Shown piece by piece: positions 5,439 to 21,310 of a stretch of DNA of 64,000 nt. The translations under genes and the position numbers were made by a program. The DNA is taken from positions 5,809-69,808 of the IMG/VR virus record IMGVR_UViG_3300007790_000161; one strand, given 5' to 3'. This DNA comes from a virus. Position 1 is the stretch's first letter. Every line of letters starts with the position of its first letter. Under the pieces are notes generated by a model. It searched no databases. It saw only the letters and a list, made by a program, of their open reading frames with translations, and was not told where the DNA came from.

Positions 5439-5487
5439 TGTATTGCCCCCGAAAGGGGGCAAAGCTTCCATAATTAAGGAGAAGGAA

Positions 5488-5670: not shown

Positions 5671-5714
5671 TACCGGGCGGACTTCGGTCCGCCAAGCTTT
5701 CCAACACAAGGAGA

Positions 5715-5903: not shown

Positions 5904-5950
5904 CCTTTCTGCCCACGAAAGTGGGCAAGCTTCCTGACATAGGAGATTAT

Positions 5951-6226: not shown

Positions 6227-6438
6227 TGGATGACAATGACATGCACCCCGGTTCTTGCCTTCTGTGGCTCATAGCTATAGGGTTGGTCTTGTGGTTGGTA
6301 ATTGATTCGGTGGCAAACTGATGAGCGACGAGAGAAACAGAAAGGTTCTCCTCTGGATGCTTCGCCTAAGCCCAATCGGCGCACTTGCCATGATTGCAAT
6401 GGTAGTGTACGCTATCACTCAACAGTAAAGGAGATAAC

Positions 6439-6618
6439 ATGACAAACGGTGAGCTGATTGAGTATCTGAGCACGTTTCCGAAGGATGCTCAGGTTGATGG
6501 ACTTCTGGTTACTGAGCATGGTAAGATGTTTCCTGTACTTGAGAGCAGCACGCTAGACTCTCAGGATGGAGAGATTTCTTGGGAGCTTTACACTGGTGAA
6601 GAATACGACTGTTCGTAA
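6439..6618 (+). CDS. hypothetical protein (59 aa)
   Basis: RBS AAGGAG; begins MTNGELIEYLSTFPKDAQV, a common phage N-terminal pattern. Confidence 0.6.
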   Translation: MTNGELIEYLSTFPKDAQVDGLLVTEHGKMFPVLESSTLDSQDGEISWELYTGEEYDCS

Positions 6619-6689
6619 TCCAAACCCGCCCGGATTTCCGGGCAAGCTTTCCTTCTAGACTATAAGGGTATAGAAACTAGGAGGATGAA

Positions 6690-6845
6690 ATGAATGTTTG
6701 GGTAGTAACAGAAGGAAATTGCACTTGCTGTAACTGGTATGTTGGCGGGGTTTTCTCAACAGAAGAGAAGGCCAACGCCTATGTATCAAAGAGTGAGTAC
6801 AAGTATTCTGAAATTGACGAAGCAATAATTGACGAAGAGGATTAA
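6690..6845 (+). CDS. hypothetical protein (51 aa)
   Basis: RBS AGGAGG; MNVWVVTEG...GGVFSTEEKANAY. Confidence 0.6.
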   Translation: MNVWVVTEGNCTCCNWYVGGVFSTEEKANAYVSKSEYKYSEIDEAIIDEED

Positions 6846-6846
6846 A

Positions 6847-7416
6847 ATGGCAACGTTCTTCACGAGTGACACGCATTTCGGTCATCAGCGTATCATCGAG
6901 CTGTGCGAGCGGCCTTTCGATTCGGTTGATGAGATGAATGAGGCAATGATTGAGCGCTGGAATGAGACGGTAAAGCAGAGTGACACCGTTTACCATCTTG
7001 GTGATGTGGCACTCGGTAAGATTGCCGAGTCTCTTCCCCTCGTTGGTCGTCTGAATGGTTACAAGATTCTTGTTCCTGGTAACCATGACCGCATTTTCTC
7101 AGGCGAGAAGGAAAAGCAGCGTCTCAGGTTCGGTCCGGAGTACGATAAGGTCTTTCAGTACACGCTCCCTGAGAGCTTCCGTACGACCCTGGGAGGCTTT
7201 GATGTGATGCTGAGCCACTTCCCCTACGTTGGGGACTCTCACGGGGCAGACAGACACGCTGACAAGCGTCCCAAGGATGAGGGTCTGCCTATCATTCACG
7301 GTCACGTGCATGACGAGTGGGCAGAAAACGGCCGGATGTTCAATGCAGGTGTTGACGTTCGAGACTTCCGCCCCGTTCATGAGGATGTGGTGGTTGACTG
7401 GCTCAAGAGCCTGTAG
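6847..7416 (+). CDS. calcineurin-like metallophosphoesterase
   Basis: Motifs SDTHFGH, YHLGD, PGNHD, SHFP and HGHVH. Confidence 0.9.
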   Translation: MATFFTSDTHFGHQRIIELCERPFDSVDEMNEAMIERWNETVKQSDTVYHLGDVALGKIAESLPLVGRLNGYKILVPGNHDRIFSGEKEKQRLRFGPEYDKVFQYTLPESFRTTLGGFDVMLSHFPYVGDSHGADRHADKRPKDEGLPIIHGHVHDEWAENGRMFNAGVDVRDFRPVHEDVVVDWLKSL

Positions 7417-7474
7417 TAAGGTGGGGACTGTTCGAAAGGGGCAGTCCCCAAGCTTCCCTGATTGAGGAGAGACA

Positions 7475-7780
7475 ATGGAATTGTTTCATTTCGTATGGGC
7501 TGATGTAATCGCTCTGGGAATCATTGCAATTGGTTTCTGGCGGGCTTTGTATCGTTGTCCTGTTGGTATGAATCCCGATAGGATAATGTATTGGTACATG
7601 GGATGTGGATGGACCACGCTTGGTGTCATCAGAACATATGAGGGATTTTATGTTTCTGCTGCTATTGATGCTGGGTTCGCCGCATATGACTTCTACCGCT
7701 GGTGGAATGCTGGTGGTGGAGATGGCATCAAGAACTTCCTTCAGAGCCTTGTCATGAAGCCTGCTCATGCTGTAAGGTAG
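7475..7780 (+). CDS. membrane protein
   Basis: RBS GAGGAG; three hydrophobic segments. Confidence 0.65.
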   Translation: MELFHFVWADVIALGIIAIGFWRALYRCPVGMNPDRIMYWYMGCGWTTLGVIRTYEGFYVSAAIDAGFAAYDFYRWWNAGGGDGIKNFLQSLVMKPAHAVR

Positions 7781-7838
7781 TACCACAAGCGGGGGCGAAA
7801 GTCTCCGCAAGCTTCCTCCCTAGACCTTAAGGAGAACG

Positions 7839-8294
7839 ATGGACCTGTTTAACGCAGAACGTCAGGCAAAGCTGCTTATGGCTGCGCATGGATTGATTGA
7901 CAAGGGGTGGCGTTTCGAATGGGATAATGCCGCGCGTCGATTCGGTCAGTGCCGCTATAGCACTAAGACAATTTCAATGTCTCGTCAGTTGACTGTTCAG
8001 CGTAGTGCTGACGCTGTTCGGAATACAATGCTTCACGAAATTGCACATGCGCTTACTCCTGGCAGTGGGCACAATGCGATTTGGCGGGCTAAGGCAATTT
8101 CCATTGGCTGTGATGGAAACCGCTGCTCTGATGATAAGGTTGAGGTTGATTACAAGTATGTAGCAAAGTGCCCGAATGGGCATGTTTCAAAGAAGTACCT
8201 TCGTAAGCCTCGGGCATCTGCTAGGCCCCGCTCTTGTGGTACTTGTAGTCCTGTTTACAATGCAAGATATGCAATTAAGGTGTACGCTATCTAG
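7839..8294 (+). CDS. SprT-like zinc metalloprotease
   Basis: Motifs RFGQC, MLHEIAHAL and GH...W, plus a C-terminal Zn knuckle. Confidence 0.88.
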   Translation: MDLFNAERQAKLLMAAHGLIDKGWRFEWDNAARRFGQCRYSTKTISMSRQLTVQRSADAVRNTMLHEIAHALTPGSGHNAIWRAKAISIGCDGNRCSDDKVEVDYKYVAKCPNGHVSKKYLRKPRASARPRSCGTCSPVYNARYAIKVYAI

Positions 8295-8403
8295 AATGGA
8301 CTGGTTCCCCATTCTGTGAATGGTTCGGGCGGGGAGAAATCCCCGCCAAGCTTGCTACAACAGATGGTACAAGAAACCTCTGTGTGGCTGTGTAGGAGGG
8401 CGT

Positions 8404-8586
8404 ATGAACGTGGCTAGGGAGTTGCGTCGGAAAGAGCATTCTAGGCCCGGACATGAGCTTAGAGACGCTACGGATGACGTATTTAGAAGCAACATGGACA
8501 CTGTGACCAGAAGGTTTCACAGATGTTCGTGCGGGTGGTTTGGATGGTTGACAGTCAAGGCGGAAGGCGGTAAGGTAAAGCCATGA
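8404..8586 (+). CDS. hypothetical protein (His/Cys motif)
   Basis: RBS AGGAGG; GHEL...CSCGW. Confidence 0.6.
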   Translation: MNVARELRRKEHSRPGHELRDATDDVFRSNMDTVTRRFHRCSCGWFGWLTVKAEGGKVKP

Positions 8587-8810
8587 ACGTTGAGGTGAAC
8601 AGCCTGTTCTCCCCACTTTTCTGGAAGTCTGTTGCAAGACGACAGGAGGATGGAGAGCGATATGGTCAGGCAGTATTCAATTCTGCCTATGGATTGTTTC
8701 CAGAAGAAGTTGGTGAGCTAGTTGCAACAGAGCTTGACCCGTTCTACAATGATGGGGTTGTCAAGCTTTTCCTTGCAGCACTGACCAGCAAGATTGGGGA
8801 AGTTCGATGA
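8583..8810 (+). CDS. hypothetical protein
   Basis: Overlapping stop/start; RYGQAVFN...DPFY motif. Confidence 0.65.
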   Translation: MNVEVNSLFSPLFWKSVARRQEDGERYGQAVFNSAYGLFPEEVGELVATELDPFYNDGVVKLFLAALTSKIGEVR

Positions 8811-9172
8811 CCCATTTCAAGGAAGTCTGCAAGTGTGGTAAGGTAATCATGCAATGTAGGTGTCCCGGACAGAAGGAGATTCGCGTGACTGACAAGTGTG
8901 AGCATGACTGGAGTCAGGCTCTTGTGGATGAGTTGGATGAGCAGTACGATGTTCCCGCAAGTGTTGAGGGAAACATCGTAAAGAAGGTTGAGATTGACCT
9001 TCCCGGACGGCACTACCTTGACGTTACGAATCACAACCTCTACGGTTTCATTGTCACGCTGACCATTTGTGACGAGACTGGCGGGGTTATCGCTGAAAAG
9101 GACCTGCTTGTTGGTGTTAAGCAGGAGAATCTTGCCAGTGATGTGGCAGGAATTTACAATTCCTACGAATGA
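8807..9172 (+). CDS. hypothetical protein with N-terminal Cys cluster
   Basis: ATGA overlap; CKCG...CRC. Confidence 0.65.
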   Translation: MTHFKEVCKCGKVIMQCRCPGQKEIRVTDKCEHDWSQALVDELDEQYDVPASVEGNIVKKVEIDLPGRHYLDVTNHNLYGFIVTLTICDETGGVIAEKDLLVGVKQENLASDVAGIYNSYE

Positions 9173-9178
9173 GGGGTA

Positions 9179-9370
9179 ATGGGAATCAAAAAGTGGACAG
9201 ACTTAACTCCATCTGAAAAGATGCAGTGGTTTGACAATTCAATACGAATTCATGAGGACCTTCCTATTCAGAAGAAGCGTAAGATTTGGGCGCGGATTGA
9301 AAAGGAACGTAAGAAGGCTGAGCAAAGAGCCAAGAGGCGTAAGCCTAAGTGGTGGCAGCGTAAAAAGTAA
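9179..9370 (+). CDS. small basic protein
   Basis: RBS GAGGGG; Lys/Arg-rich. Confidence 0.6.
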   Translation: MGIKKWTDLTPSEKMQWFDNSIRIHEDLPIQKKRKIWARIEKERKKAEQRAKRRKPKWWQRKK

Positions 9371-9383
9371 CAAACGGGAGGGG

Positions 9384-9412
9384 TTGACAGACCCCTCCCA
9401 AGCTTGTAAGGT
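9384..9412 (+). promoter_or_regulatory. sigma70-type promoter embedded in an inverted repeat
   Basis: TTGACA-N17-TAAGGT. Confidence 0.72.
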
Positions 9413-9434
9413 AATGACCAACAAAGGAGAAGAA

Positions 9435-9671
9435 ATGTTCGGTCGTAAGAAGTACCGCAAGGGTCGTAAGTATGTGCTTGTCATTGCGGCACTGGACCTT
9501 CGCAATCAAGCTAGGCTGTACACTCTCAGGAAGCGTGTTTGGTTTAGTAAGCATGTTTCCGAGATTGACGCAATGGACATGATGATTGATATGCTGTGTG
9601 AAACTTCAGGTGATGAGACTTTCACCAAGCATGAGGCTATGGTTGTCTTTTACCGTCTTGTTCGAGACTAG
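9435..9671 (+). CDS. hypothetical protein
   Basis: RBS AAGGAG before ATG 9435. Confidence 0.65.
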   Translation: MFGRKKYRKGRKYVLVIAALDLRNQARLYTLRKRVWFSKHVSEIDAMDMMIDMLCETSGDETFTKHEAMVVFYRLVRD

Positions 9672-9727
9672 GACTTGACAGGCAGGCGCAAGTCTGCCAA
9701 GCTTGTAACACAACGAAGGGACAGAAG

Positions 9728-9934
9728 GTGCTTCCATCAGGCCACAAGCCGGTATGCAGGTCATGTTACAATTTCGATTGCGACAATTGTGCTGACAAAA
9801 TTGCAAAGAATACTGAATGGGAAGGGGTATTTCCTAAGTGCGAATGCGGATGCTCGGTAAGCGTGGACAGCCGTTCTGTGGAAGCAAGTGCTGTGGAGAA
9901 AAGCGTGCGAAGAAGAAGCACACGCGCCGAATGA
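9728..9934 (+). CDS. Cys-rich (Zn-finger-like) hypothetical protein
   Basis: CRSC...CDNC...CECGC. Confidence 0.6.
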   Translation: MLPSGHKPVCRSCYNFDCDNCADKIAKNTEWEGVFPKCECGCSVSVDSRSVEASAVEKSVRRRSTRAE

Positions 9935-9986
9935 AGCGTCGGGAGCGTGGTTCCCGAGCGTGGCGTAGCTTCTAGAAAATCGGGGG

Positions 9987-10015
9987 TTGACAGAAAAACC
10001 CTCTAGCTGTAAGGT
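9987..10015 (+). promoter_or_regulatory. sigma70-type promoter driving a non-coding region
   Basis: TTGACA-N17-TAAGGT. Confidence 0.72.
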
Positions 10016-10021
10016 AATACC

Positions 10022-10345
10022 AACGCAAGACGGTGAGGGAAGGCGCACTAAGACTCCCGACTCTCACCAAGCTTTGAAGGGTAGAATTACCTCCGTAATG
10101 AGTCCGTGGGTAAGAGTCCATCACGAGTGGAACGAATGGTAACCTACTGCGGCTAACCTTTCTCTTAGACGCCTGATGACCCCCGGATTACGGCTCTTTG
10201 TTTCTAGAGCTTAGATGACCGTAACATCGGTTGCAAACGATAAAGGGGTGAGGGGTGCGCTATAGTGAAAATGGCAAACACACTCGTAAGAGGGGTTCCG
10301 GTTCGAATCCAGATAGCGTACTGGTGTGGGATACCATAAAATCCC
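10022..10345 (+). ncRNA. candidate structured non-coding RNA
   Basis: About 360 nt without a plausible ORF downstream of a promoter. Several stems: 10032-10068, 10076-10162, 10182-10230, a tRNA-like domain, and 10328-10345. Confidence 0.55.
10256..10321 (+). ncRNA. tRNA-like structure lacking an anticodon loop
   Basis: 7-bp acceptor stem TGCGCTA/TAGCGTA, U8A9, D-arm GTG-AAAATGGCAAA-CAC and T-loop TTCGAAT. A CTC-GTAA-GAG hairpin replaces the anticodon arm. Confidence 0.65.
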
Positions 10346-10386
10346 AATCAATAACCGGCTAATCTGCTTAATTAAGGGAGTTTTAC

Positions 10387-10671
10387 ATGCGCCTCAAGGA
10401 TGTAGACCTTACTGGCTGGACCCTGAACATTGAAAAGCATCCGGGATTTAAGGTGATGGGTCAAAATCTGTATTGGTGTTATGTTACCCCGCCCGGAAAG
10501 GAAAAGCCTCTCGAATTCGTTTCCTTCCAGTTTGGGTTGATGATTAATGACCATCTCAGTCTTTATGCCTGGACTGATAAGGGTGCCGAACGTAAGTTCA
10601 TGAAGAAGGTTCGTAAGATGGTTCGAGACGAAATCGTTGAAGCCGAAAGCAAGAAGACCATTTCCCTCTAA
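10387..10671 (+). CDS. hypothetical protein
   Basis: RBS AAGGGAG. Confidence 0.65.
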   Translation: MRLKDVDLTGWTLNIEKHPGFKVMGQNLYWCYVTPPGKEKPLEFVSFQFGLMINDHLSLYAWTDKGAERKFMKKVRKMVRDEIVEAESKKTISL

Positions 10672-10684
10672 GGAGACTGACAAC

Positions 10685-10864
10685 ATGATGATTCCCGCTC
10701 CCCGAGTCGAGTCGTTCCCGTGCCGTGAGACCGGCTGTGATGGCTTCTACGTGCCTTACAGCGACGGTCTGATGGTTTGCTACGACGGACACGTTTCTAG
10801 CCTCTCTGTGGACGACGTAGACGTTCCGGTCGGTGCGCTTGTTCCTGTCCTGGAAGAGTGCTAA
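10685..10864 (+). CDS. hypothetical protein (Cys motif)
   Basis: RBS AAGGAG; CRETGC...CYDGH. Confidence 0.6.
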   Translation: MMIPAPRVESFPCRETGCDGFYVPYSDGLMVCYDGHVSSLSVDDVDVPVGALVPVLEEC

Positions 10865-10917
10865 GATTCTTCTAGCTGGGGACGAAAGTCTCCAGCAAGC
10901 TTCCCTAAGGAGGGGTT

Positions 10918-11151
10918 ATGCAGTACACTATTACTGAGATTCTGCCCAAGAAGTATATGGAAGACCCTACTGACCTTCAGTTTGTTACTGAGGTTGAGGA
11001 TGAATTCCTTCCGAGAATTGGTGATAATCTCGTATATAACAGTCAAGAATATCGAGTTAAGGACGTTGAACGTAATCTTGACACTCGCACTACTATAGTG
11101 TACGTTAGTGTACCTGAACCCGAGCTTGACTTTGGTTATATCGATTGCTGA
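10918..11151 (+). CDS. hypothetical protein
   Basis: RBS AAGGAGG; FLPRIGD motif. Confidence 0.65.
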   Translation: MQYTITEILPKKYMEDPTDLQFVTEVEDEFLPRIGDNLVYNSQEYRVKDVERNLDTRTTIVYVSVPEPELDFGYIDC

Positions 11152-11207
11152 AATCCGGGCGGGTTTTCCCGCCCAAGCTTCCCAACTATCTAATCAAAGG
11201 AAAAGTC

Positions 11208-11708
11208 ATGGTTGGAAATGAAGAGGAAGCTCGTATCATTGCACTCTGGGAATTCGATGAAGTGGATGAATACGAGTATCAACCCCCCGATGGTTTTGAG
11301 TATATCGGGGAGGGAGCTAGCAGGATTGCATTCCGCAGTCTTGCGACTGGAGTAGTGTATAAGCGACACTACTACTCGGATGATGACACTAACGAATTCG
11401 AATACAAGGCAATTGAGAGAATCAAGAGAATTCCTCTCAAGGGCTGGAGGGTTCCCGACGCTACTCTTTATGTGGTTGAGGAACAGCAAATTATAGCAAT
11501 GGAATTTGTTGAGGGTGGAATGGATGTCCATTGTCAGCGTTCCTACTCATTCTGGAACAAGCCGTGCAATTGTGGTAAGCCTCTGGGAATGTGCAGCGCA
11601 GAAGCGTGGGAGCAGCCTCAAGGAAAGTGGCGGGTTTCAGATTTGCATGTTGGCAATATCGTAATCGATGATAACGGCATCAGGGTCTTGATTGACCTCG
11701 GTGCTTGA
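11208..11708 (+). CDS. protein-kinase-like protein (paralog 1)
   Basis: Gly loop GEGASR, VVYK, helix-C Glu, IAMEFVEG hinge, DLHVGN catalytic loop and IDLG. Confidence 0.82.
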   Translation: MVGNEEEARIIALWEFDEVDEYEYQPPDGFEYIGEGASRIAFRSLATGVVYKRHYYSDDDTNEFEYKAIERIKRIPLKGWRVPDATLYVVEEQQIIAMEFVEGGMDVHCQRSYSFWNKPCNCGKPLGMCSAEAWEQPQGKWRVSDLHVGNIVIDDNGIRVLIDLGA

Positions 11709-11762
11709 CCATCACTGCTCAGTCATGATAGGCTGAGCAAGCTTCGGAACAAAGGAGAAAGA

Positions 11763-11903
11763 ATGCCTAAGCGTCAGATGCCCAAGCCTCGTAACCCTCG
11801 TATGAACAAGACGATGGAGTATCGTAAGGGCTCTGGTGATTTTCCGACAATGAGTAAGCCTCGCTACTCTCGTAAGGTCAAGTACATTCGAAAGGAATCG
11901 TAA
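11763..11903 (+). CDS. small basic peptide (46 aa)
   Basis: RBS AAGGAG; MPKRQMPKPRNPRM... Confidence 0.55.
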   Translation: MPKRQMPKPRNPRMNKTMEYRKGSGDFPTMSKPRYSRKVKYIRKES

Positions 11904-12073
11904 TGGAATCCTGGCGGGCTTTCAGAGATAGCAAGTCTCGTGTAAGATATGTAAGGGAAGTTAAGGAAACGGAAGAGAAGTTTGTTCTTCCGTTGTGGAT
12001 TACAATTCCATTTATCATTGCAATGCTTCCCATTATATTTGTTGAAGTTAGATTTCTCTGGGAGGTTATGTAA
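11903..12073 (+). CDS. small membrane protein
   Basis: TAATG overlap; C-terminal TM helix. Confidence 0.5.
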   Translation: MESWRAFRDSKSRVRYVREVKETEEKFVLPLWITIPFIIAMLPIIFVEVRFLWEVM

Positions 12074-12126
12074 TGAATGGTCACTGCTGGTGTGGTGCTG
12101 AGTATCCTTGCCTCAAGCACTGAGGG

Positions 12127-12155
12127 TTGACACCCTACAGGGGGGTAGGGTAAGG
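12127..12155 (+). promoter_or_regulatory. sigma70-type promoter
   Basis: TTGACA-N17-TAAGGT. Confidence 0.7.
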
Positions 12156-12246
12156 TTGTAGTCACAAGGGCAGGGGGCGGAAACAAACCCTGCCAAGCTA
12201 GGAAGGCCAACGGGTCCTCCGGAAAATATTCTAGGGAGAATGCATT

Positions 12247-12630
12247 ATGCGTAAGCTTCACTTCACTGACCCTGAGCTTAAGAACTTCGCCCTTCGTGGT
12301 ACGCATTCGATTCGCGGAGGTATGGAGCTTCTTCACGTGCACTCTCGTAAGGAGCGATTCGGCTCTTACGCTACTCGAATGGACAGTCTGACTCAGGCTT
12401 ACGAGCTTCCCGCTCACGTGATTCACAAGATGATTACGGGCGGGGATTCGGATAAGACGGAAATGCAGTGGATTTACTTTACGAACAAGTACGGCAAGAT
12501 TCGCCCCACCTATCTCTCTGACTCTGGTGTGATTCCCTACGTCGGCTCTGGTGGTTCGGCTCTCAACGACACGAATTTCCTTCTTGACCTCGGTGCCCTT
12601 CGTAAGTTTGGGATTGAGGTTGACTACTGA
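12247..12630 (+). CDS. hypothetical protein
   Basis: 127-aa ORF with phage codon usage. Confidence 0.7.
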   Translation: MRKLHFTDPELKNFALRGTHSIRGGMELLHVHSRKERFGSYATRMDSLTQAYELPAHVIHKMITGGDSDKTEMQWIYFTNKYGKIRPTYLSDSGVIPYVGSGGSALNDTNFLLDLGALRKFGIEVDY

Positions 12631-12702
12631 GGTAGTCATGGGCTACAGTAGAAGCGTAGCCCAAGCTTGCAACACCCCATCGTAAACCAACACTAAGGAT
12701 GA

Positions 12703-13098
12703 ATGATGAACAAGGGTCTCAAGGTCGCTGGTCTCGCTGTTGCTGGTGTGGTTGCTCTGACTGCCTGTGAGGGTGGTTCGAGTACGGTTCACTACAAGAG
12801 TGGTAAGGCTGGCACTGTTGTCGGAAAGTCTTCCAAGGGTGGTACGTACAAACTGACTACCAAGAGCGGCGGTAAGAAGAAGACGTTTGAGGTTTTCTCC
12901 TCTGTCTACTTTGACTGCGGAATGTACAGCTACTACCCCACTTGTGTCAAGTCGGCAAAGCCGGTTTCCACTCCCACCAAGAATGGCGGTGTGAATGGTA
13001 CTCCCAAGTCTAAGAAGACTTCTGGTACTAAGTCCGACTCTAACAAGAAGAGTGGCGGATTTAAGAGTGGTGGCTTCTCTTCCAGCAAGAAGCGCTAA
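12703..13098 (+). CDS. lipoprotein with Lys/Ser/Gly-rich tail
   Basis: Signal peptide with lipobox LTA-C; low-complexity C-terminus. Confidence 0.7.
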   Translation: MMNKGLKVAGLAVAGVVALTACEGGSSTVHYKSGKAGTVVGKSSKGGTYKLTTKSGGKKKTFEVFSSVYFDCGMYSYYPTCVKSAKPVSTPTKNGGVNGTPKSKKTSGTKSDSNKKSGGFKSGGFSSSKKR

Positions 13099-13155
13099 TA
13101 TCCGGCAAAAATAAAGATTATCGTAAACAGAATAAACTAATAGATAATAAATATC

Positions 13156-13193
13156 TCCCCTCTGGCTTCGGCCAGAGGGGATTTTTGTGTTTT
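13156..13193 (+). terminator. strong intrinsic terminator ending the rightward arm
   Basis: TCCCCTCTGGC-TTCG-GCCAGAGGGGA then TTTTTGTGTTTT. Confidence 0.88.
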
Positions 13194-13210
13194 AATTTCA
13201 AAAAATTCAA

Positions 13211-13290
13211 AAATTTTGTGGCAAAATTTTGAACCATCGTAAAGGGAATTCTGAAATTTTTGTGGCATTTTTTATGACCATCGTAAAGGG
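13211..13290 (+). repeat. imperfect direct repeat with A/T tracts
   Basis: AAATTTT(T)GTGGC-N8-..ACCATCGTAAAGGG at 13211-13246 and 13254-13290. Confidence 0.8.
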
Positions 13291-13708
13291 GCTTCTGCCG
13301 GAATCGGACATGTCGGGCTCGCCCCGCTTCGCGGGGCTTCGCCCTCTTTTATACCAAATTGTACCAATTTGGTAGTGTTTGCCCTGGTCTGTACTGAAAT
13401 GTACCCGAATGTCCGATTTTCCCGAATCCCCAGTCGGCACAGAAGATTTTACCTCCTGAGGGGTTGACTAATTGCCAGGGCATAGGGTACGCGCGGGAAT
13501 TCCGGGCCTGCCTGGTTTCGAGCGTCCGGCCGAGCCGTGCCGACACGCGCAGCGCACCCGAGCAGCCGGATAGTTTAACTCTAAACATTTAGGCCGGCAA
13601 ATCATTTCATTAGCTAACTAAATAGTTAGACAGCCTAAGCTGTTACATTCCGGCCGGACGATTGTACCAATCAGTGTAGCAATACAGACGTTGATACAAT
13701 CCGAGATT

Positions 13709-13838: not shown

Positions 13839-14114
13839 TGTGGATAAACCTGTGGATAACTTCGCTACTCTGTGCAATGTTACTTCACAGTATGTGAGAA
13901 AAGCTCTGTACGCCTTTCTAAGAGCCTCCCAGCACTGCCCATAGGCAACCACCCCAGGGCACCCGCGAAAGGCCGTTAGACGCGATTTTCACGCTGCGTA
14001 GTATCTGACGGACCGTTGGGAAACCCTAGAAAACCGCAGGTCAGACTATGTTTCGGCATTTATGAAGGGTTGTTGAATAACTGCGCACGGTTACTCTCTG
14101 TTGACTGTGGATAA
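13839..14114 (-). promoter_or_regulatory. three perfect DnaA boxes (TTATCCACA)
   Basis: TGTGGATAA at 13839-13847, 13851-13859 and 14106-14114. Confidence 0.7.
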
Positions 14115-14340: not shown

Positions 14341-14535
14341 AGGGACTTGCAATCCGGGCCGGTTTCCTGGAGAGTCTTCCTTGTCAGAACGGAACGGCGG
14401 AACGGGAAACCGGGAAGTCGGGAAGGGAAGACAAGCGGTAACCGACTCTGATAGAGTCGGAGACGCACCGGAGGAAAACCCGAAAGGGCCAGTACAAAGG
14501 AATGCGCGGTTCCTTGAGAATTCAATAGTGGGTAC
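14341..14535 (+). promoter_or_regulatory. rRNA-operon-like tandem promoter and leader with boxA
   Basis: TTGCAA-N17-GAGAGT; extended -10 TG-A-TAGAGT (14449-14457); CCC-GAAA-GGG hairpin (14479-14488); GTTCCTTGAGAATTCAATAG (14509-14528), which matches actinobacterial rrn boxA as recalled. Confidence 0.72.
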
Positions 14536-14878
14536 AGAAACACATTACGCACCATAGAGCGCTAAAGCGTCCCTAGTCCGTGAATTCTGCGGGGAATACG
14601 CCAATACATTGTTAGCGCGAATCGGTATTCTCGGCACTTTGCCAGAATTAGCGAAAAGACACCCTCTCCCTGTCATGGCAAGACATATCGGGTGTGGCGG
14701 ATATCCGGGCGGTAGACCGGGTGTGAATATCCAATCTGAGTAGCGAAATTCAGCGGGTGTTTTGTTTATTGGTCAATGGTGTAACCGTCCCGATTATCTA
14801 GGGACTGTGGCTTTAGACGCTTACCCTTTCGAGCGTCTAGTGTCCACATGTGATTAGGGGAAGAAAGCTGAGGCGAAA
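14536..14878 (+). ncRNA. highly structured leader of about 340 nt or ncRNA
   Basis: Stems include AATTCTG/CAGAATT, GGGAATAC/GTATTCTC, ACACC/GGTGT, GGATAT/ATATCC, GTCCC/GGGAC and TAGACGCT/AGCGTCTA. Confidence 0.55.
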
Positions 14879-15184
14879 ATGACCACTGCCAAGAGCACTG
14901 CCAAGCGTCCGGCGCGCAAGGTTGCCGAGACTGCCGAGAGTGACCCTCAGAACGTCGCAGGATGGACGTTCACGGCCCCCCGGAAGGTTCGGGGGTGGAA
15001 GAGTGCCGGTACCGTCTCTCTGACGCGTCAGACGCCGGATGAGCCGTCCGGCGGGTGGCATAAGGTGTGCCGTGCCCTGTGGAACATGGGTGAGGCGGCC
15101 GAAACCGCAACGGGCGGGAATGCGTATTACGCCCGTCGCCGTGACGCGATTGTCTCGCGTCTGGAATCCTTCCTTTCCAAGTAG
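14879..15184 (+). CDS. hypothetical protein, first gene of the putative early block
   Basis: First ORF after the leader; Ala/Lys-rich N-terminus. Confidence 0.7.
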   Translation: MTTAKSTAKRPARKVAETAESDPQNVAGWTFTAPRKVRGWKSAGTVSLTRQTPDEPSGGWHKVCRALWNMGEAAETATGGNAYYARRRDAIVSRLESFLSK

Positions 15185-15281
15185 CTAAACCGTCTCTTCC
15201 GGTAATGCCGGATTGAGGCAAGGGAAACCCAACAAACCGAATTCCCCTAATCACTTGCGGACACTAGAAAGGAGAAAATCA

Positions 15282-15773
15282 GTGTTCCGACTTTCGGTGA
15301 ATGGCAAAACCTACAACCCGACTTCCGTTAAGGATTTTTGGCCGCGTGCCAATCGTTCTGACGGATACGACGGAAGTTGGGTTGAATTCCCGGATTTCTA
15401 TTACTGCGTTTGGATGACCATTGACGGCAAGACTTTTGCCGTTGACGGAAATGCTTCGCGGTATGAGCTTGCCCGGCACATTCGGAATTCCCGCAAGATT
15501 GCGGCGAGTAATCCGGATGTTCCCTTTTCCATCGGCTATCAGAAGATTTGGACAACGCGACGGGAATTGCTTTGCCCGTGGTGTGGCGTCCGGCCGGACC
15601 AATGGGAATGGGACTGTGACGGACAGTTTCCCATGTCCACATGTGGCAGCGAACAGTGTGACAAGCTGAATCGCTGTCAGGGGTGCGGACGCGACGGGGA
15701 GGCACGCATTAACCATCTGTGTGATGAGTGCTACGTCATGGAATACAAGCGACCACTACCGGGCCGGAAGTAA
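15282..15773 (+). CDS. hypothetical protein with C-terminal Zn fingers
   Basis: RBS AAAGGAG with GTG at 15282; CPWC, CxxxxC, CQGC and CDEC. Confidence 0.7.
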   Translation: MFRLSVNGKTYNPTSVKDFWPRANRSDGYDGSWVEFPDFYYCVWMTIDGKTFAVDGNASRYELARHIRNSRKIAASNPDVPFSIGYQKIWTTRRELLCPWCGVRPDQWEWDCDGQFPMSTCGSEQCDKLNRCQGCGRDGEARINHLCDECYVMEYKRPLPGRK

Positions 15774-15870
15774 TTCAGCTAGTAGTTTGGGGGTCTGCCT
15801 TTCCCGAAAGGGAAAGGCATTCCACCCCAATCCGCTAGACGAAAAGCGGTGTCCTGAAAGGGAAAAGGAA

Positions 15871-16545
15871 ATGTCCGAAACCATCGGCACTCAGGCTGAG
15901 GCGGAAGAGATTTTCAGTTTCGTTCTGCGCTATAACGCGTGGAAGCAAATGGAGCGGAACAACGAATTCGCGGCGTACGAATTCAGCCATCACGCAGAAA
16001 TGCTGCGGCTGCACCGACAGTTCCCGGATGACCCTTGGTACCGGCACCCCGGCCCGCTCCGTTGCCACTACGCCTACGGGCCGAACATCGAAAAGCCGGA
16101 ACTTCCGGAAGGTTGGAAGTTCCTTGCGGCCGGTGTCTCCCGTCGCGCTTACCTCTCCCCTTCCGGGGTGGTTTACAAGGTGCAGCGCAACCCTGAGAGC
16201 GACTATCAGGGGAACAAGGGAGAGCACGAAACGGCGGAGCGTGTGCGCAAGTCCGGGGATGTCCGGGGCGCGTACATTCCCCGGACGTCGCTTTACAAGG
16301 TTCCGGGGTCATGGGTAATCGCCCTGGAATACATGAACGGCATTCGCGGTGACGACCATTGGGAAATGTACTGCTATCCCGGTGAACGGTGCCGTTGCGC
16401 ATTCCCCGGATACGTCCGGTGCGCGTCCGCTATCAAGCGGGAATTGCAGAACAAGTTGGGCCTTTCCGACTTGCACAACGAAAACGTTTTGTGGGTTCCC
16501 TCACAACGCGTTTGGGCGGTCGTTGACTTGGGATTGGCCAACTAA
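15871..16545 (+). CDS. protein-kinase-like protein (paralog 2)
   Basis: AAGVSRRAY, VVYK, NKGE, IALEYMNG, DLHNEN and VVDLG. Confidence 0.82.
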   Translation: MSETIGTQAEAEEIFSFVLRYNAWKQMERNNEFAAYEFSHHAEMLRLHRQFPDDPWYRHPGPLRCHYAYGPNIEKPELPEGWKFLAAGVSRRAYLSPSGVVYKVQRNPESDYQGNKGEHETAERVRKSGDVRGAYIPRTSLYKVPGSWVIALEYMNGIRGDDHWEMYCYPGERCRCAFPGYVRCASAIKRELQNKLGLSDLHNENVLWVPSQRVWAVVDLGLAN

Positions 16546-16615
16546 GCCATTCTGTGGCTTTAGGGGTGCTCACTCGAAAGGGTGAGCACACCCTATGGAC
16601 TCACAGAAAGGATGA

Positions 16616-17080
16616 ATGACAGTGAGTTTCAATCCGGCTGAGAAAGTCAGTCAGTGGAATTACGCCGTAGAAATCGAGTATTCGGAAGGGACTAGCACTC
16701 TCATCCGTTCGGCTTTCTTCGGTACGGCAAAGGATGCGGCTGCATTCCTTGACGGTTTCGACTACACAAACGGTGACGTTTTCGGGTGGTCGGGTGATTC
16801 CGCAACGATGGAAGCAATCCAGAGTTACCGAAAGGGTGACGACGTGCGAGCGGTTCCGGAATTCATCACGGAATACGACGTTGACGACGAAACCGATTCG
16901 GGTAAGGCAATCGGAGCGGACGAATTCAATCGTCTGTTTCTCGCCTTCCACCGAAAGGACGGTTTCACGGTGCGCCGTTGGGCCGTTCCGAACGGACACG
17001 TTTACGCCGTTATGTATAACGGTGAGCTGTCCGGCGCGGCATGGCACGTTCCGACGGATGCGGATTCCGTCATCATGTAA
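16616..17080 (+). CDS. hypothetical protein
   Basis: RBS GAAAGGA; acidic. Confidence 0.7.
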   Translation: MTVSFNPAEKVSQWNYAVEIEYSEGTSTLIRSAFFGTAKDAAAFLDGFDYTNGDVFGWSGDSATMEAIQSYRKGDDVRAVPEFITEYDVDDETDSGKAIGADEFNRLFLAFHRKDGFTVRRWAVPNGHVYAVMYNGELSGAAWHVPTDADSVIM

Positions 17081-17168
17081 GAGCCTTTCAGTCTCTATAG
17101 GGAAAGGGGGTGGTTACCTTGCGACGTAGGCGCAAGCGCAAATTACCCAACGGCTGAAAGGAAAAGGA

Positions 17169-17405
17169 ATGCGGGAATATCTGGTCTGGAATGAATCCGG
17201 CGACTTGCTTTCGGGACCACACCGGAAGAGAGAAACGGCGGAAAGGATGGAAGCTAAGTTCATGGCGGAATGTGCGGCGGAATGCGGTACAGACGGTATG
17301 GACGAAAACGGAAACGGTAATTTCGCGTGCGGAGTGCTTTCCCCGCACGGAATCCACATTCAAGTGACGGAAGGTGGATACGACATTACCGGGCACGATT
17401 ACTGA
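17169..17405 (+). CDS. hypothetical protein
   Basis: RBS AAGGA. Confidence 0.65.
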   Translation: MREYLVWNESGDLLSGPHRKRETAERMEAKFMAECAAECGTDGMDENGNGNFACGVLSPHGIHIQVTEGGYDITGHDY

Positions 17406-17486
17406 CGCTAGGGCGTCCGGGCATTCGCAACTGTCGTTGTGAGTGTCCGAATGTCCTAAGGGTTAGGGCATTGAAAGGGGTATGAA

Positions 17487-17660
17487 ATGCGTACGGTCAA
17501 GGTTGACGGTAAGTCGGGCATCATCGCTGCGCGCGGTATGGGTCCGAACGATGGCAACGTGTTCGTTCTGTTCGATGGGGACGGCACGGCGGAAGAGTCG
17601 GCCCGTTGGGTGTCGGTGGAGTCGGTCACGGTGACCGGAACCCTTCCCGCATCGTTCTAG
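17487..17660 (+). CDS. hypothetical protein (57 aa, SH3-like beta pattern; not in the ORF track)
   Basis: RBS AAAGGGG; MRTVKVDGKSGIIAARG...VFVLFDG...WVSVESV. Confidence 0.6.
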   Translation: MRTVKVDGKSGIIAARGMGPNDGNVFVLFDGDGTAEESARWVSVESVTVTGTLPASF

Positions 17661-17763
17661 GCCCGTGGGGGCCGTTCTGAGAGGCTTTGGAACGCCCCCC
17701 GGCCCGTTTCCCCAACCAAGCTGAGTACGGCCGTTAGAGCGGCGTACAGGAGGTTTTTGTAGC

Positions 17764-18027
17764 ATGGAACGTAGCACGGTGTCCCTGTCCACTCCGCGCG
17801 GGGAACTGATTCGGTTTGAGATTCCGGGATTCGGTTTGGTGCACATGCGCCCCGGAAATCTCGCGGAATGCATGACGCGCACTGAGGAAATGACGATTCC
17901 GGAAATTCGGCAGTCGCTCATTTCGGAAGGGTGGAGCTTGGGAATCCTTGACGGTCCGTCCGATGCAATTTCCCGAATCTCTTGGGTTGCGGTTTGGGGA
18001 GAGTGCCACGGACACGGCATTTTCTGA
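17764..18027 (+). CDS. hypothetical protein
   Basis: RBS AGGAGG. Confidence 0.65.
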   Translation: MERSTVSLSTPRGELIRFEIPGFGLVHMRPGNLAECMTRTEEMTIPEIRQSLISEGWSLGILDGPSDAISRISWVAVWGECHGHGIF

Positions 18028-18122
18028 TATGAGCGTTTAGCCGCTCTAGTCATTCTCAGGATTCCTGAGTTTGGCTAAATCGGCTGAAAGCAAAGTCGAG
18101 AATTCCACGAAAGGGAATTACC

Positions 18123-18680
18123 GTGATTGGCAATGCACGTGACGCGGAAATGATTCGTGATTACGTCGTTAACTCGCGGATTGTCCGGGAAGAGCGTTCG
18201 AATTACGAATGTGGCTATTTCATCGGCCCCGTTCGCAATCGACCGGCCCGACCGGAAGGATGGAAGCGCGTAGGCGGCGGGTGTTTTCGTTCCGCGTGGC
18301 TTTCCCCGGACGGTGTGATTTACAAGGTGGAACACGCTTACGGGAATGGCGGGCAGTCGAATTCGGAGGAATACGAAAACGTCGTCCGAATCCTCACGGG
18401 GAACAAGTCGCACCCTTACGTGTCCATTCCGCGAGTCACCTATTACGCCCTTGACGGGCGGGGGGTCATCGCAATGGAGTACGTGAACGGGGAAGAGCCG
18501 GGATACTGCCACGGGTGCGGAAGTGGTTACCGGCACTGCACCACAAAGGTTCGGGGGAAGTGCATTAACCACATTTACGCGGAAATCGAAAAGGAATTCG
18601 GCCTTTTCGATATGCACTCCGGAAACGTGATGTTCATTCCCGAACAAGAGCGTTTCGTCGTTATCGACATTGGCGCTTAG
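18123..18680 (+). CDS. protein-kinase-like protein (paralog 3)
   Basis: GGGCFRSAW, VIYK, NSEE, IAMEYVNG, DMHSGN and VIDIG. Confidence 0.82.
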   Translation: MIGNARDAEMIRDYVVNSRIVREERSNYECGYFIGPVRNRPARPEGWKRVGGGCFRSAWLSPDGVIYKVEHAYGNGGQSNSEEYENVVRILTGNKSHPYVSIPRVTYYALDGRGVIAMEYVNGEEPGYCHGCGSGYRHCTTKVRGKCINHIYAEIEKEFGLFDMHSGNVMFIPEQERFVVIDIGA

Positions 18681-18759
18681 ACGTCTAGTGATTGGCAGGC
18701 TTGTTTAGCTGCCTTTCGCTAAATGCCTAAGGGTTAGGCAGGAAAAGGGGAAATGCAGA

Positions 18760-19098
18760 ATGACGGTAAAGCTTGGCATGTACGGCAAGGGTCGCACTTC
18801 CTGGATTGACTTCCGGGATGTGATTCTGTCGGGTGAGGCTTTCACCATTTCTTCCGGCACGTTCTACGGTGGTCCGGTCAAGCCCGGTTATGCGGCCCAT
18901 TTGGAAATGGGCCGGATGCCGAATAACGAGCGTGAGATTTTCCGCGCGCTCGCGCCGGAAATCGATTACGTGATTTACAGCTATGCGACTCCGATTGCAT
19001 GGCACGAAAGGGGTGCGGACGTTTGGCACCTTACGGAAGCGGGTCACAGCAATTCCACAAAGCGGCACAAGGGTAAGCTTTGTGGTCTGCCGTTCTAA
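18760..19098 (+). CDS. hypothetical protein (YSYxTPIAW motif)
   Basis: RBS AAGGGG; recurrent phage motif. Confidence 0.7.
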   Translation: MTVKLGMYGKGRTSWIDFRDVILSGEAFTISSGTFYGGPVKPGYAAHLEMGRMPNNEREIFRALAPEIDYVIYSYATPIAWHERGADVWHLTEAGHSNSTKRHKGKLCGLPF

Positions 19099-19183
19099 AC
19101 GGTTCGGGTTGCGGTATTCCGGGCGGGTGTTCGGAATACCGTTTTCCCAATCCGCTTAGGGTGAGTGGATTAGAAAGGAAATC

Positions 19184-19393
19184 ATGGTTATTCTTGCGTT
19201 GCTCGGAATGTTCGCTATTTCGCTCGTGTTCGGAGCGATTGCGGCTGTCCCTATCGCATGGCTTGTCATGCTGATTATGGGAGCGCTGCATAGCGTATTC
19301 CCGTCCGTGGAAAACCTTTCCTTCCTTTCGGCATGGGTGGCAACTTGGCTTGTTGCCATTATCGCCGGGGTGTTTGTGCAGAACCGAAGCTAA
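19184..19393 (+). CDS. membrane protein
   Basis: RBS AAAGGA; almost entirely hydrophobic. Confidence 0.7.
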   Translation: MVILALLGMFAISLVFGAIAAVPIAWLVMLIMGALHSVFPSVENLSFLSAWVATWLVAIIAGVFVQNRS

Positions 19394-19477
19394 CGGTTCG
19401 GGTGATTGGCAATGGAGAGTTTGCCAATTGCTCAATCCGCTAGATTCAAAAAGCGGTGACCGAAAGGGTAAAAGCTA

Positions 19478-19858
19478 ATGGGACACATTTTCGCTTTCAT
19501 GACCGGTACCGCCGTTTCGCTTGACGGTGGGGAGGACGAAAGGGAAGAGCGTCACGGCTGGATTGACAAGGAATGGAGCATGACCGTTCTGCACGATTCC
19601 CGGAACGACGTTTCTCCGCTGGTTTCCGTTGACGAATCGGACACGGAAACCCTCACGGACGAAATCCGGGATGTGTTGGGAGACGGTTCCCTGTGGGATG
19701 ACAACGGGGACGGCTCTTTCTATGCACAGGGTGAGTCCGTGGAAGATGGTTACGCATGGACGTACGCCGTGCATTTCAAGCGCAAGGGTGGCGCGTCTGA
19801 GGGGTTCGCGGAGACGGATTGGCACCCTGAGACGGACGGCGGTATTTCTCTCGTCTGA
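19478..19858 (+). CDS. acidic hypothetical protein
   Basis: RBS AAAGGG. Confidence 0.7.
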   Translation: MGHIFAFMTGTAVSLDGGEDEREERHGWIDKEWSMTVLHDSRNDVSPLVSVDESDTETLTDEIRDVLGDGSLWDDNGDGSFYAQGESVEDGYAWTYAVHFKRKGGASEGFAETDWHPETDGGISLV

Positions 19859-19916
19859 GAGGCATACAGCCGCTAGGCGGTAGGTTGGTACATAGCGTGC
19901 AACAAAAAGGTGCTGT

Positions 19917-20393
19917 GTGCCTTCCTACGGCACCGGGAAACCGTTCCCGGTGTCTGGCTTAGGGAAGGGGTTACAAGTGGCTCTAACGGGCGTACACGCG
20001 TGCATGGACGGTATCCGGCACGGCAACGGGGAGTGTGGTTTCAGTCCGTTGTCTGTCCGGGGTGCGACGTGCTGTCAGTGCAAGGGGTATCCGGCCACTA
20101 CCGCACAGGGTGACTGCACTGTGTGCGGGGGCGGGTATTACGAATCGATGGACGATTTCCGGGCCGATATTCCCCCGGTAGATTCCGGGCGGGTAGTGAG
20201 TGAATTCCCCATTACCATTACCGCCTATAGAGGAAACAAGGAAGTAAAGGTAAGTGGAGTAAGGGAAGATTCGGTAAAGGCCAATACGGATAGGGAAGGG
20301 AATGTGTTCCTTTCCTTTGAATTCAAGGATGACCCGGACCGAATCGGGTACATTCCTTGCGTGGATTGGTACGCAACCGAATGTGAATGGTAG
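19917..20393 (+). CDS. hypothetical protein; the true start may be GTG 20196
   Basis: The C-terminal 65 aa look like a discrete protein. The 5' part competes with ORF 19910-20113. Confidence 0.45.
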   Translation: MPSYGTGKPFPVSGLGKGLQVALTGVHACMDGIRHGNGECGFSPLSVRGATCCQCKGYPATTAQGDCTVCGGGYYESMDDFRADIPPVDSGRVVSEFPITITAYRGNKEVKVSGVREDSVKANTDREGNVFLSFEFKDDPDRIGYIPCVDWYATECEW

Positions 20394-20622
20394 AAAAGCA
20401 CTACACACTAGGAAGAAAGGACAGCCTATCGATTGTCGATAGATTTAGAGGGTAATAGTGCGGCAATTCAAAAGGCCGCATTTAATAGGTAATTCGGCTA
20501 AAAAGCCTGCAAATGCAAGGGAAAAGGCATGAAAACGGCTGCATTTCTCGCAATTCTCGGTGTTTCTCTGTGCATCCTGTATATCAGGGGCGCATATACG
20601 GTAATTACAGGAGGGTAGATAT

Positions 20623-20904
20623 ATGGGTTGTGCTATTCAGTGGGTATCTAGGAAGGGAAATGGGGGTGTTATCTATGGTGGGTATGTAGTGAATGACGGT
20701 ACACACATTGTCTTTGTGGATACCCGGTCAAAGGGGAATACCCGCCCGCTCTATCTCTACCTAGGAAAGGGGGATGACCTAAAGGGTATGGCTGTATATA
20801 GGGAATCGGCATTCATCATGCCGGATGTTCTCTTGAATGCAGCTCAATACAATACCCTTGTTGCCTCTATGGATGACTATAAGACTAGGTCATTCAAAGG
20901 GTAA
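20623..20904 (+). CDS. hypothetical protein
   Basis: RBS AGGAGG. Confidence 0.6.
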   Translation: MGCAIQWVSRKGNGGVIYGGYVVNDGTHIVFVDTRSKGNTRPLYLYLGKGDDLKGMAVYRESAFIMPDVLLNAAQYNTLVASMDDYKTRSFKG

Positions 20905-21112
20905 TCAGTCGGAAGAAAACCCGCGAGAAATCCGGGCGGAAAAGATTCAGCATTATGGAGAGGTTGCATCCTTTGCGGGTAGGGGTGTTCTTTTCGTCGG
21001 CACAATGGGAATTGCTGCGGTATCGGCAATCGCAATCGCTCTAGCTGGATTGTTCTTTGTCCTGGGAATTGTGTTCCAAGCTTTCTCGGTATTCTAGAGA
21101 GGAATTCTTTTA

Positions 21113-21156
21113 GGGGACCCGGCGATAATCTCAATGGGTCCCCCGGAATTCTTTTT
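21113..21156 (+). terminator. terminator ending the early block
   Basis: GGGGACCC...GGGTCCCC followed by a T tract. Confidence 0.6.
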
Positions 21157-21310
21157 CAATTGCGAAAGCAATTGTTTATGGGCGCACTAATTGCGAATGC
21201 AAATTCGAATTGCCGGCCTATATCATACATCACAAAAAATTTGTGACATTTTGAATCTGGAAATAGGTTACTTTAAGTTGATTGTAGCTAACGGAGAGTA
21301 TTCGGCCCTA

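Follow-up and report, generated by a model that had tools for sequence, protein, structure and literature searches.

Hairpins that lie between cistrons and cut or cap the early messages of phages are already known from T7 and SP82. The early unit of T7, which is about 7 kb long and is transcribed by the host RNA polymerase, includes a protein kinase gene (PMC4858673), and its cistrons are separated by the hairpins R0.3, R0.5, R1, R1.1 and R1.3, which contain bulges or internal loops and have no U-tracts. Also, the early mRNA of phage SP82 is cut by RNase III of Bacillus subtilis, according to the references given in PMC4838370. We here describe a comparable arrangement in 64,000 nt of viral DNA (positions 5,809-69,808 of the IMG/VR record IMGVR_UViG_3300007790_000161; this whole stretch is called the window, and coordinates count from its first letter), namely, a block of 12 small genes on the + strand (14879-20393) with long hairpins in nearly all of its spacers and, in most of them, a second short hairpin in front of the ribosome-binding site (RBS). 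The window belongs, judging from its sequence, to a lytic Gilsonvirus-like Streptomyces phage (Loccivirinae, cluster BE-type), and no description of such hairpin punctuation in Streptomyces phages was found in the literature searched.

Bulged intercistronic hairpins without U-tracts thus recur in this phage, and the size of the block together with its two kinase-like genes draws a parallel to the T7 early region (PMC4858673). The two differ, nonetheless, in several respects: about 11 sites, nearly one per gene, are present here as against five in T7; a second short hairpin is placed here against the Shine-Dalgarno (SD) sequence, and the apical loop is invariant in one family of hairpins; the host is an actinomycete of high GC content, and the putative promoter mimics that of an rrn operon; and the T7 sites are cut, whereas cleavage is only predicted here. 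SP82, a large phage of a Gram-positive host with early messages cut by the host RNase III, is likened to the present phage from the citation alone (PMC4838370). What is particular here is the order of long hairpin, AAU linker, short hairpin and SD sequence, a hairpin family with a fixed loop, the free swapping of hairpin apices, a second punctuation system in the same genome and the coupling to a borrowed rrn leader. The observations given below support the hairpins as RNA structures selected on the coding (mRNA) strand. As to their role, we hold it to be an evenly balanced proposition that these modules punctuate a polycistronic early mRNA as processing or stabilising elements.

Hairpin modules between the genes of the block

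The common order in the spacers is the stop codon, 0-12 nt, a long hairpin (H1), a linker that is usually AAT, a short hairpin (H2), the SD sequence GAAAGG and the start codon. H1 is variable in sequence, comprises 13-29 bp and is often built of two or three tiers with bulges, and H2 comprises 5-10 bp and occurs as type A (AATGC-stem-loop-stem-GCA) or type B (AATCCGCT-loop-AGCGG or -AGTGGATT). The gap between H2 and GAAAGG is 0-2 nt in type A and AATCCGCTTAG-type modules and 4-6 nt in the spacers starting at 15774 and 19394. In the spacers starting at 16546 and 17081, H2 is missing, and it is H1 that reaches into the SD sequence with its 3' arm.

When the minimum free energy (MFE) of each spacer was compared with that of 200 dinucleotide shuffles (z score), the ten spacers between 14879 and 19858 had MFE values of -21 to -41 kcal/mol, and seven of the ten were far more stable than their shuffles (z -2.9 to -7.9). 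These are the spacers at 15774 (-40.8 kcal/mol, z -3.9), 16546 (-41.1 kcal/mol, z -7.9; -8.45 in a second fold calculation on 16546-16621), 17081 (-31.7 kcal/mol, z -2.9), 17406 (-34.9 kcal/mol, z -4.5; -4.97 in a second fold calculation on 17406-17486), 18028 (-36.9 kcal/mol, z -4.9), 19099 (-38.0 kcal/mol, z -4.4) and 19394 (-28.3 kcal/mol, z -3.2). An initial annotation of this DNA had listed long hairpins at nine sites, eight of which proved real and stable; at the ninth, about 15190, there is none (z -0.8). The z score is only -1.4 for the spacer at 18681, yet the relatives of this phage keep its hairpins through compensatory changes. Two further spacers were absent from that list, namely, 17661-17763, where z is not significant but a hairpin with compensatory changes is found, and 19859-19976, which is structured (z -4.27).

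The second spacer of the block has an H1 at 15789-15828 (GGGGG...CCCC around TGCCTTTCCC-GAAA-GGGAAAGGCA), the inner part of which is an unrelated hairpin between the same two genes in relatives, and a type B H2 at 15832-15849 (CCGCT-loop-AGCGG), with GAAAGGG following at 15856-15862. The H1 of the third spacer (16547-16611) is a bulged stem of 27 bp with its 3' arm running into GAAAGG, and compensatory changes are seen in Comrade and Moab. In the fourth (17084-17161; z -2.9), an outer stem CCTTTCAGTC/GGCTGAAAGG, in which the first GAAAGG is paired, encloses an inner hairpin. The sixth has an H1 at 17663-17702 and an H2-like hairpin at 17725-17747 ahead of AGGAGG; compensatory changes in Blueeyedbeauty and Annadreamy were seen by eye, and RNAalifold underestimated the helix because MAFFT misplaced its 3' arm. 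The seventh contains a three-tiered H1 with internal loops (18033-18091; z -4.9; compensatory changes in Comrade and Belfort) and an H2-like hairpin that includes GAAAGGG (18101-18119). In the eighth, the H1 at 18686-18721 has another sequence with the same fold in Comrade (AGTGA/TCGCT replaced by GGGGA/TCCCC). The ninth has an H1 at 19106-19148, a 14-bp stem plus GGG/CCC (z -4.4), which is the sole hairpin in the window with TTTT next to it. Finally, the eleventh spacer forms a two-hairpin domain with an outer closing stem (19873-19962; -55.4 kcal/mol, z -4.27), the counterpart of which has -45 to -66 kcal/mol in six relatives.

For H2 and for one family of H1, which has the loop UGNRGAGU, we built the models R1 and R2, respectively. 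The H2 of the fifth spacer is of type A (AATGTCCTAA-GGG-TTAGGGCATT; 17450-17472), lies directly 5' of GAAAGGGG, scores 40.3 bits with R1 and shows covariation. The type A H2 of the eighth (TGCCTAA-GGG-TTAGGCA; 18724-18740; 35.6 bits) and the type B H2 of the ninth (AATCCGCTTA-GGG-TGAGTGGATT; 19149-19171; 41 bits) are likewise directly 5' of GGAAAAGGGG and AGAAAGGA, respectively. The tenth spacer has both a UGNRGAGU-type H1 (19400-19433; R2 61.6 bits; covariation), with a 13-bp stem, the invariant loop TGGAGAGT and a basal extension to 19394-19439, and a type B H2 (19437-19456) that is followed by GAAAGGG at 19461-19467. The 14-bp H1 of the fifth spacer (17418-17449) is a diverged member of the R2 family (27 bits); its lower stem is common with that family, and its apex is different. 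This hairpin can be extended to 17410-17457 at the cost of H2, and the two forms of 17406-17486 are only 2.5 kcal/mol apart (MFE -34.9 and centroid -32.4 kcal/mol). Both stems that the initial annotation had quoted as examples are present, and the extended one, TAGGGCGT.../...ATGTCCTA, is the centroid fold of 17406-17486. Its division of the small hairpins into two recurring types also stands, with two of type A and three of type B, although the position of 15819 given for the first of type B was about 13 nt off. Furthermore, hairpins abut or include the GAAAGG site, as had been claimed, in the spacers at 16546, 17081, 17406, 18028, 18681 and 19099.

The first spacer (15185-15281) has no conserved hairpin and contains a conserved box, CCTAATCACTTGCGGACACTAGAAAGGAG, at 15246-15274. 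This box reads CCTAAT-N6-8-GCGGACACTAGAAAGGAG and precedes the second gene in most relatives, and its GCGGACAC resembles the CCCGGACA box in the terminal-repeat spacers of the BE1 phages (see below).

The accessory arm of the same phage (1-13100) is also punctuated on the + strand, by a hairpin and AAGCTT after small genes with AGGAG-type RBSs. The spacers of the block differ from this second system in that they are longer (75-118 nt), mostly contain H2, use GAAAGG and are free of AAGCTT, which occurs in 24 copies in 1-13100; this absence had been noticed before and is correct, with AAGCT alone at 17718 and 19472. An RBS of the GAAA(A)GG type is found in 9 of the 12 genes at the genome end and in 1 of the 28 accessory-arm genes, and the AGGAG type in 2/12 and 19/28, respectively. 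GAAAGG is complementary to the extreme 3' end of 16S rRNA (CCUUUC).

Conservation, covariation and the folded strand

In a search with the 5.1 kb around the hairpin block, the sole matches were 28 Streptomyces phage records. Kenrey, MeganTheeKilla, Gilson and Phredrick (Stanwilliamsviridae, Loccivirinae, genus Gilsonvirus) were the closest, with 91-95% identity over 69-80% of the query. We compared 17 Loccivirinae phages of Gilsonvirus, Annadreamyvirus and Faustvirus, and structured spacers of 75-105 nt were present in the block of all 17, most with the same layout. The 96 distinct spacers of this set have a median of 22 bp in their largest hairpin domain; 86 of them reach 12 bp or more there and 54 reach 20 bp or more, a helix size that would fit a double-strand-specific RNase.

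H2 and the UGNRGAGU family of H1 covary. In 20 distinct H2 sequences, both sides change in 5 of the 10 pairs, and the covariation score is 0.427 as against 0.146 in shuffled alignments (none of 500 as high) and 0.09 or less in slid controls; model-based realignment of 36 H2 hits gave the same outcome. The UGNRGAGU family, with one to three copies per genome, changes both sides in 10 of 13 pairs, and 92% of its cells are paired (0/500 shuffles). When the basal extension was included in an alignment that allows bulges, both sides changed in 12 of 19 pairs, and the pair 7-49 of the extension is GC in seven rows, CG in four and broken in none; because the compared phages are related, all these counts are inflated by shared descent, a first point against the role proposed above. 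The H1 hairpins outside this family vary freely. Between the same flanking genes, the inner H1 hairpins of Phredrick are unrelated to those of MeganTheeKilla, Gilson and Emma1919, and the same applies to Stigma and Comrade. Also, the apex of the hairpin in the sixth spacer (TTCCGAGTCGCTTAGAA) is exactly inverted between MeganTheeKilla and Gilson, which belong to the same species (4621-4720 of both compared loci). Since unrelated hairpins are swapped at the same place between the same genes, it is a hairpin as such that is required there.

In the sequences searched with the models, the modules were confined to the block. R1 had 36 hits in 136 kb, all on the + strand and all inside the block, as were the strong R2 hits; neither model had hits in the rest of the window, the left end of Kenrey or the terminal repeat of Jay2Jay (BE1). 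A loose H2 pattern in IMG/VR gave mostly chance matches, and R1 gave only four weak ones (best E 0.005) among the 80 listed loci searched, a result that has no bearing on the spread of the modules beyond the subfamily. As annotated, Comrade gene 253 (locus 2414-2695) and Phredrick gene 263 (locus 2421-2693) each include an H2 module in their 5' part (2448-2480 and 2461-2493, respectively). The same gene begins at about 2499 in other records, and the longer start calls are probably wrong.

In the 8-nt loop UGNRGAGU, six positions (T18, G19, G22, A23, G24 and T25) are invariant over covarying stems, and in H2, which is usually placed directly against the SD sequence, the covarying stem is enclosed by flanks that are fixed (AATGC...GCAGGAAAGG). 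Such features would be expected of operators at which an RNA-binding protein of the phage or host sets the translation or timing of early genes, as in the translational operators of T4. A precedent may be the SAS/ESAS elements of cluster K phages, the function of which is unknown; non-structural genes of these actinophages are preceded by a conserved box that contains the RBS, with an imperfect inverted repeat just upstream (PMC3203893). The 13-bp start-site box of cluster K (GGGATAGGAGCCC) is, nonetheless, absent here, where the boxes are AATGC..GCAGGAAAGG and AATCCGCT..GAAAGG, and the arms of ESAS are conserved in sequence (17-bp consensus, PMC3203893), whereas the stems here covary and are accompanied by a long variable hairpin. 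The conserved loop is limited to one H1 family, free variation is seen in the remaining H1 hairpins and in the loops of H2, and the operator idea comes without a candidate binding protein; we thus regard it as distinctly unlikely, and it would be compatible with processing rather than exclusive of it. A broader proposal, unlikely as well, is that the UGNRGAGU hairpin and the fixed-flank H2 form a dedicated recognition code bound by a specific early protein of the phage or host, which together with the rrn promoter/boxA and the two kinases would direct a self-contained programme of post-transcriptional control in the first minutes of infection. The fixed GAAAGG type of RBS would then set the messages of the block apart from the AGGAG-type rest.

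As for the strand that folds, the + strand of the spacers is more stable than its reverse complement by 5.9 kcal/mol on average and in 79 of the 96 cases. When helices were predicted with Watson-Crick pairs only, furthermore, single mismatches inside helices were G.T in 75 cases and A.C in 8, which means that the fold is read on the + strand. The conclusion that the hairpins are RNA structures selected on the mRNA strand is supported by these results.

G.T is, nonetheless, the most tolerated mismatch in DNA hairpins also, and the modules might act as DNA, namely, as folded single-stranded sites of recombination or replication that bound cassettes behind one promoter in an integron-like manner. 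The structure is kept while the sequence varies, hairpin apices are swapped or inverted, the cassettes are promoterless behind one upstream promoter, and one cassette (19179-19461), bounded by two type B H2 modules, is absent in Kenrey. Also, 19 of 49 homology breakpoints between phages fall in spacers, as against 19% expected (p 0.002). This enrichment is only about twofold, and in mosaic phage genomes it is usual for breakpoints to fall at gene borders. The portions of the relatives' records that were examined have no integron-type recombinase annotated, and the hairpins themselves, with GAAA loops of the GNRA type and a position that is fixed with respect to the stop codons and SD sequences, point to mRNA. 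A DNA-level function of the hairpins is, accordingly, highly improbable in our view. The breakpoint enrichment and the cassette between two H2 modules nevertheless suggest that the repeated modules probably serve also as crossover points.

Proposed transcription and fate of the early message

The initial annotation had called the early transcript rrn-like and antiterminated, and a host rrn-like leader with boxA is indeed present ahead of the block. This copy of a Streptomyces rrn leader (14444-14529, + strand), which consists of a TCTGATAGAGTCGG box and then a boxA-like GTTCCTTGAGAATTCAATAG, aligns to the Streptomyces tritici leader about 185 nt upstream of 16S rRNA with 84% identity over 62 nt (E 8e-13). 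Its motif TTGAGAAYTCAAYAGYG is present in many actinobacterial genomes and, in three of the three Streptomyces loci checked, lies on the strand of the 16S rRNA and about 185 nt upstream of it. Just 5' of the first gene lies a leader hairpin, TAGACGCT/AGCGTCTA within GTGG/CCAC (14807-14847, + strand). An 89-nt stretch folded around it was not significant against shuffles (z -1.03), and even phage Faust, which belongs to another genus, is about 92% identical over 14800-14872. Given the leader copy with boxA, the block is probably read by the host polymerase from one strong promoter through an anti-termination leader, over about 6.7 kb to the genome end.

The hairpins do not have the hallmark of canonical intrinsic terminators, as a T-run (at least 4 T in the next 8 nt) follows only 2 of 95. 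A terminator scan picked none of the spacer hairpins, although it found the canonical terminators with hairpin and T-run that this genome has where gene blocks end (13156-13181 and 21344-21321). A scan for sigma-70-type consensus sites detected no promoter inside any spacer and no enrichment of promoters or terminators, and the sole such site in the block begins at the GTG start codon of the gene at 18123. With neither U-tracts nor promoters in the spacers, one long early transcript punctuated by processing or stabilising hairpins is the most economical reading.

It could be supposed instead that the hairpins are intrinsic terminators or attenuators without U-tracts, each followed by a promoter for one gene or gene pair, as in the early region of phiC31, the BE1 repeat and T4, where small, mosaic, hyperplastic early genes have a stem-loop (PeSL) at every junction and the junctions are also where breakpoints fall. 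The hairpins begin right behind the stop codons, the gene content is mosaic with the breakpoint enrichment given above, and a 1995 paper cited in PMC3993855 deals, by its title, with rho-independent terminators that lack poly-U tails in the early region of phiC31. In Jay2Jay, furthermore, which belongs to a sister subfamily, each terminal-repeat spacer has a terminator-like hairpin and a TAGACT-type -10 box, and TAGA/TAGG strings occur in some type B H2 loops of the present phage. The T-runs of the genome's own terminators speak against this idea, as does the title of PMC3993855, according to which a U-tract is required for intrinsic termination by the mycobacterial RNA polymerase. In contrast to T4, no early promoter was detected behind the stem-loops here, the stem-loops are selected as RNA, and the rrn-type boxA leader upstream suggests read-through. 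We consider terminators of this kind very unlikely. A promoter inside H2, conceivable from the -10-like TAGAC/TAGGGT strings in its loops by analogy with the BE1 spacers, was ruled out, because it would leave H2 untranscribed and H2 covaries with G.U on the + strand, so that it must be transcribed. In Jay2Jay itself (900-10430, minus strand), the first element in the order of the spacers is a GC hairpin that has a UUCG loop and a T-run; a GGCCCGGACA box and a -10-like box of the form TAGACT/TAGAGT come next, often with a GAAAGGG hairpin behind them. These repeat spacers look like a terminator plus a promoter for each gene.

In the processing model, the host RNA polymerase would make one early transcript from the rrn-like promoter/boxA leader at about 14.45 kb to the genome end, and a host endonuclease specific for double strands would cut in H1 or at its base. 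H1 would stay on the upstream cistron as a cap against 3' exonucleases, and the downstream cistron would begin a few nucleotides before H2, which would protect the new 5' end and keep the RBS free of upstream pairing. The basal extension of H1 takes up the AAT linker and the first bases of H2, and the long H1 and H2 thus partly exclude each other; in several spacers, therefore, the long form could be the substrate and H2 the form after the cut. RNase III (AbsB) would be the most likely enzyme, although its specific involvement is doubtful at present. The bulged stems of two or three tiers at 16547, 17084 and 18033 resemble T7-type sites in having about two helical turns with an internal loop or bulges. 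That host RNase III dices the transcript into separate messages, as the initial annotation had it, thus agrees with the selected coding-strand structures and the rrn leader, but the loop UGNRGAGU, the AAT linker and H2 are not explained by RNase III alone.

Several further points weigh against the processing model. The H1 stems at 17418, 18686 and 19400 have only 13-14 bp, a length below that of classical RNase III substrates if their imperfect base is not counted. RNase III does not require the invariant loop, which hints at some other ligand, and T7 sites have neither the recurrent AAU linker nor H2. The first spacer (15185) is nearly unstructured in relatives also (-5 to -14 kcal/mol), and the tolerance of G.T would equally fit a folded single DNA + strand. 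Searches of Rfam produced no credible family for the block (E up to 1) and none for 15 related loci at the gathering score, which holds for self-cleaving ribozymes (hammerhead and twister) as well. Finally, when all spacers of the window were compared by BLAST with eight Streptomyces rrn loci, no match had E 0.05 or better, and the possibility that the spacers are copies of host rRNA processing stems was thereby ruled out.

The shortness of several H1 stems would be less of a difficulty if the hairpins blocked exonucleases and uncoupled RBSs without any cut, or if RNase E/ES or RNase J cut in the AAU linker, after which H1 would cap the 3' end and H2 the 5' end. A short single-stranded AAT between hairpins (the motif Y-N-AAT-B occurs in 63 of the 96 distinct spacers) and the abutment of H2 on the SD sequence would suit this mechanism, and no RNase III domain (PF14622) was found in five complete related phage genomes. 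In the extended fold, however, AAT partly pairs with the 5' flank of H1, where T9-A47 is invariant and 7-49 covaries, so that the linker may be conserved for pairing and not as a cut site. Moreover, AAU(G/C)C is not known to match the preference reported for mycobacterial RNase E, which counts against a cut by RNase E in the linker. Stabilisation without a cut, or with a cut in the linker, is in sum fairly unlikely.

Genome end, kinase-like genes and significance

Comparison with the related genomes places the block at a physical genome end. In the linear records of relatives (about 129 kb), it occupies the final 6 kb, and the direct terminal repeat of Kenrey has 766 bp only. This repeat of 766 bp occurs once in the window, as one collapsed copy (20458-21223), and is followed by left-arm genes, indicating that the assembly, a contig of 71,960 bases, joined the right and left genome ends; on these grounds, 14879-20457 is the unique right end that abuts the terminal repeat. 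A location of the block inside a long terminal repeat was ruled out, as the repeat has 766 bp and lies beyond it; the terminal repeats of the BE1 subfamily are about 11 kb. The GC content of the block is 53-57% as against 44-49% elsewhere, and a gene-free stretch of 1.4-1.8 kb precedes the block in all relatives. In the window, this stretch contains three exact TGTGGATAA 9-mers (the DnaA-box complement; 13839-14114), two of which are spaced by 3 bp, and two tandem 44-nt units (AAAATTTTGTGGCAAAATTTTGAACCATCGTAAAGGG..., 80% alike) are found at 13210-13297, directly past the two-way terminator at 13156-13181.

The two kinase-like genes of the block (15871-16545 and 18123-18680) are paralogous, and their products of about 185-224 aa are 33% identical and keep the YKV, DxHxxN and terminal IDLG motifs. 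One of them was predicted to fold as a minimal protein-kinase-like domain (pLDDT 87.7), and the PDB matches listed are protein kinases, aminoglycoside phosphotransferases and related enzymes, the best including the minimal kinase OspG (TM-score 0.47), APH(2'') and PknB; Pfam gave no match to either paralogue. In MeganTheeKilla, the place of the second gene is taken by an unannotated stretch of 441 nt (locus 4967-5407), in which only an open reading frame of 207 nt is called at the 3' end, and the gene may be broken there.

The positions of the hairpins help to correct start-codon calls in the records of related phages. If the modules are processing and capping sites, they would also offer ready-made substrates for the Streptomyces RNase III (AbsB), the specificity of which is poorly defined, and compact insulator parts of the order H1, H2 and SD for polycistronic expression in Streptomyces. 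In that case, the early strategy of T7, namely, a transcript made by the host polymerase, cuts between the genes and a kinase of the phage, would have arisen also in large siphoviruses of high-GC actinomycetes, and would be combined here with a promoter and an anti-termination leader borrowed from the rRNA operon.

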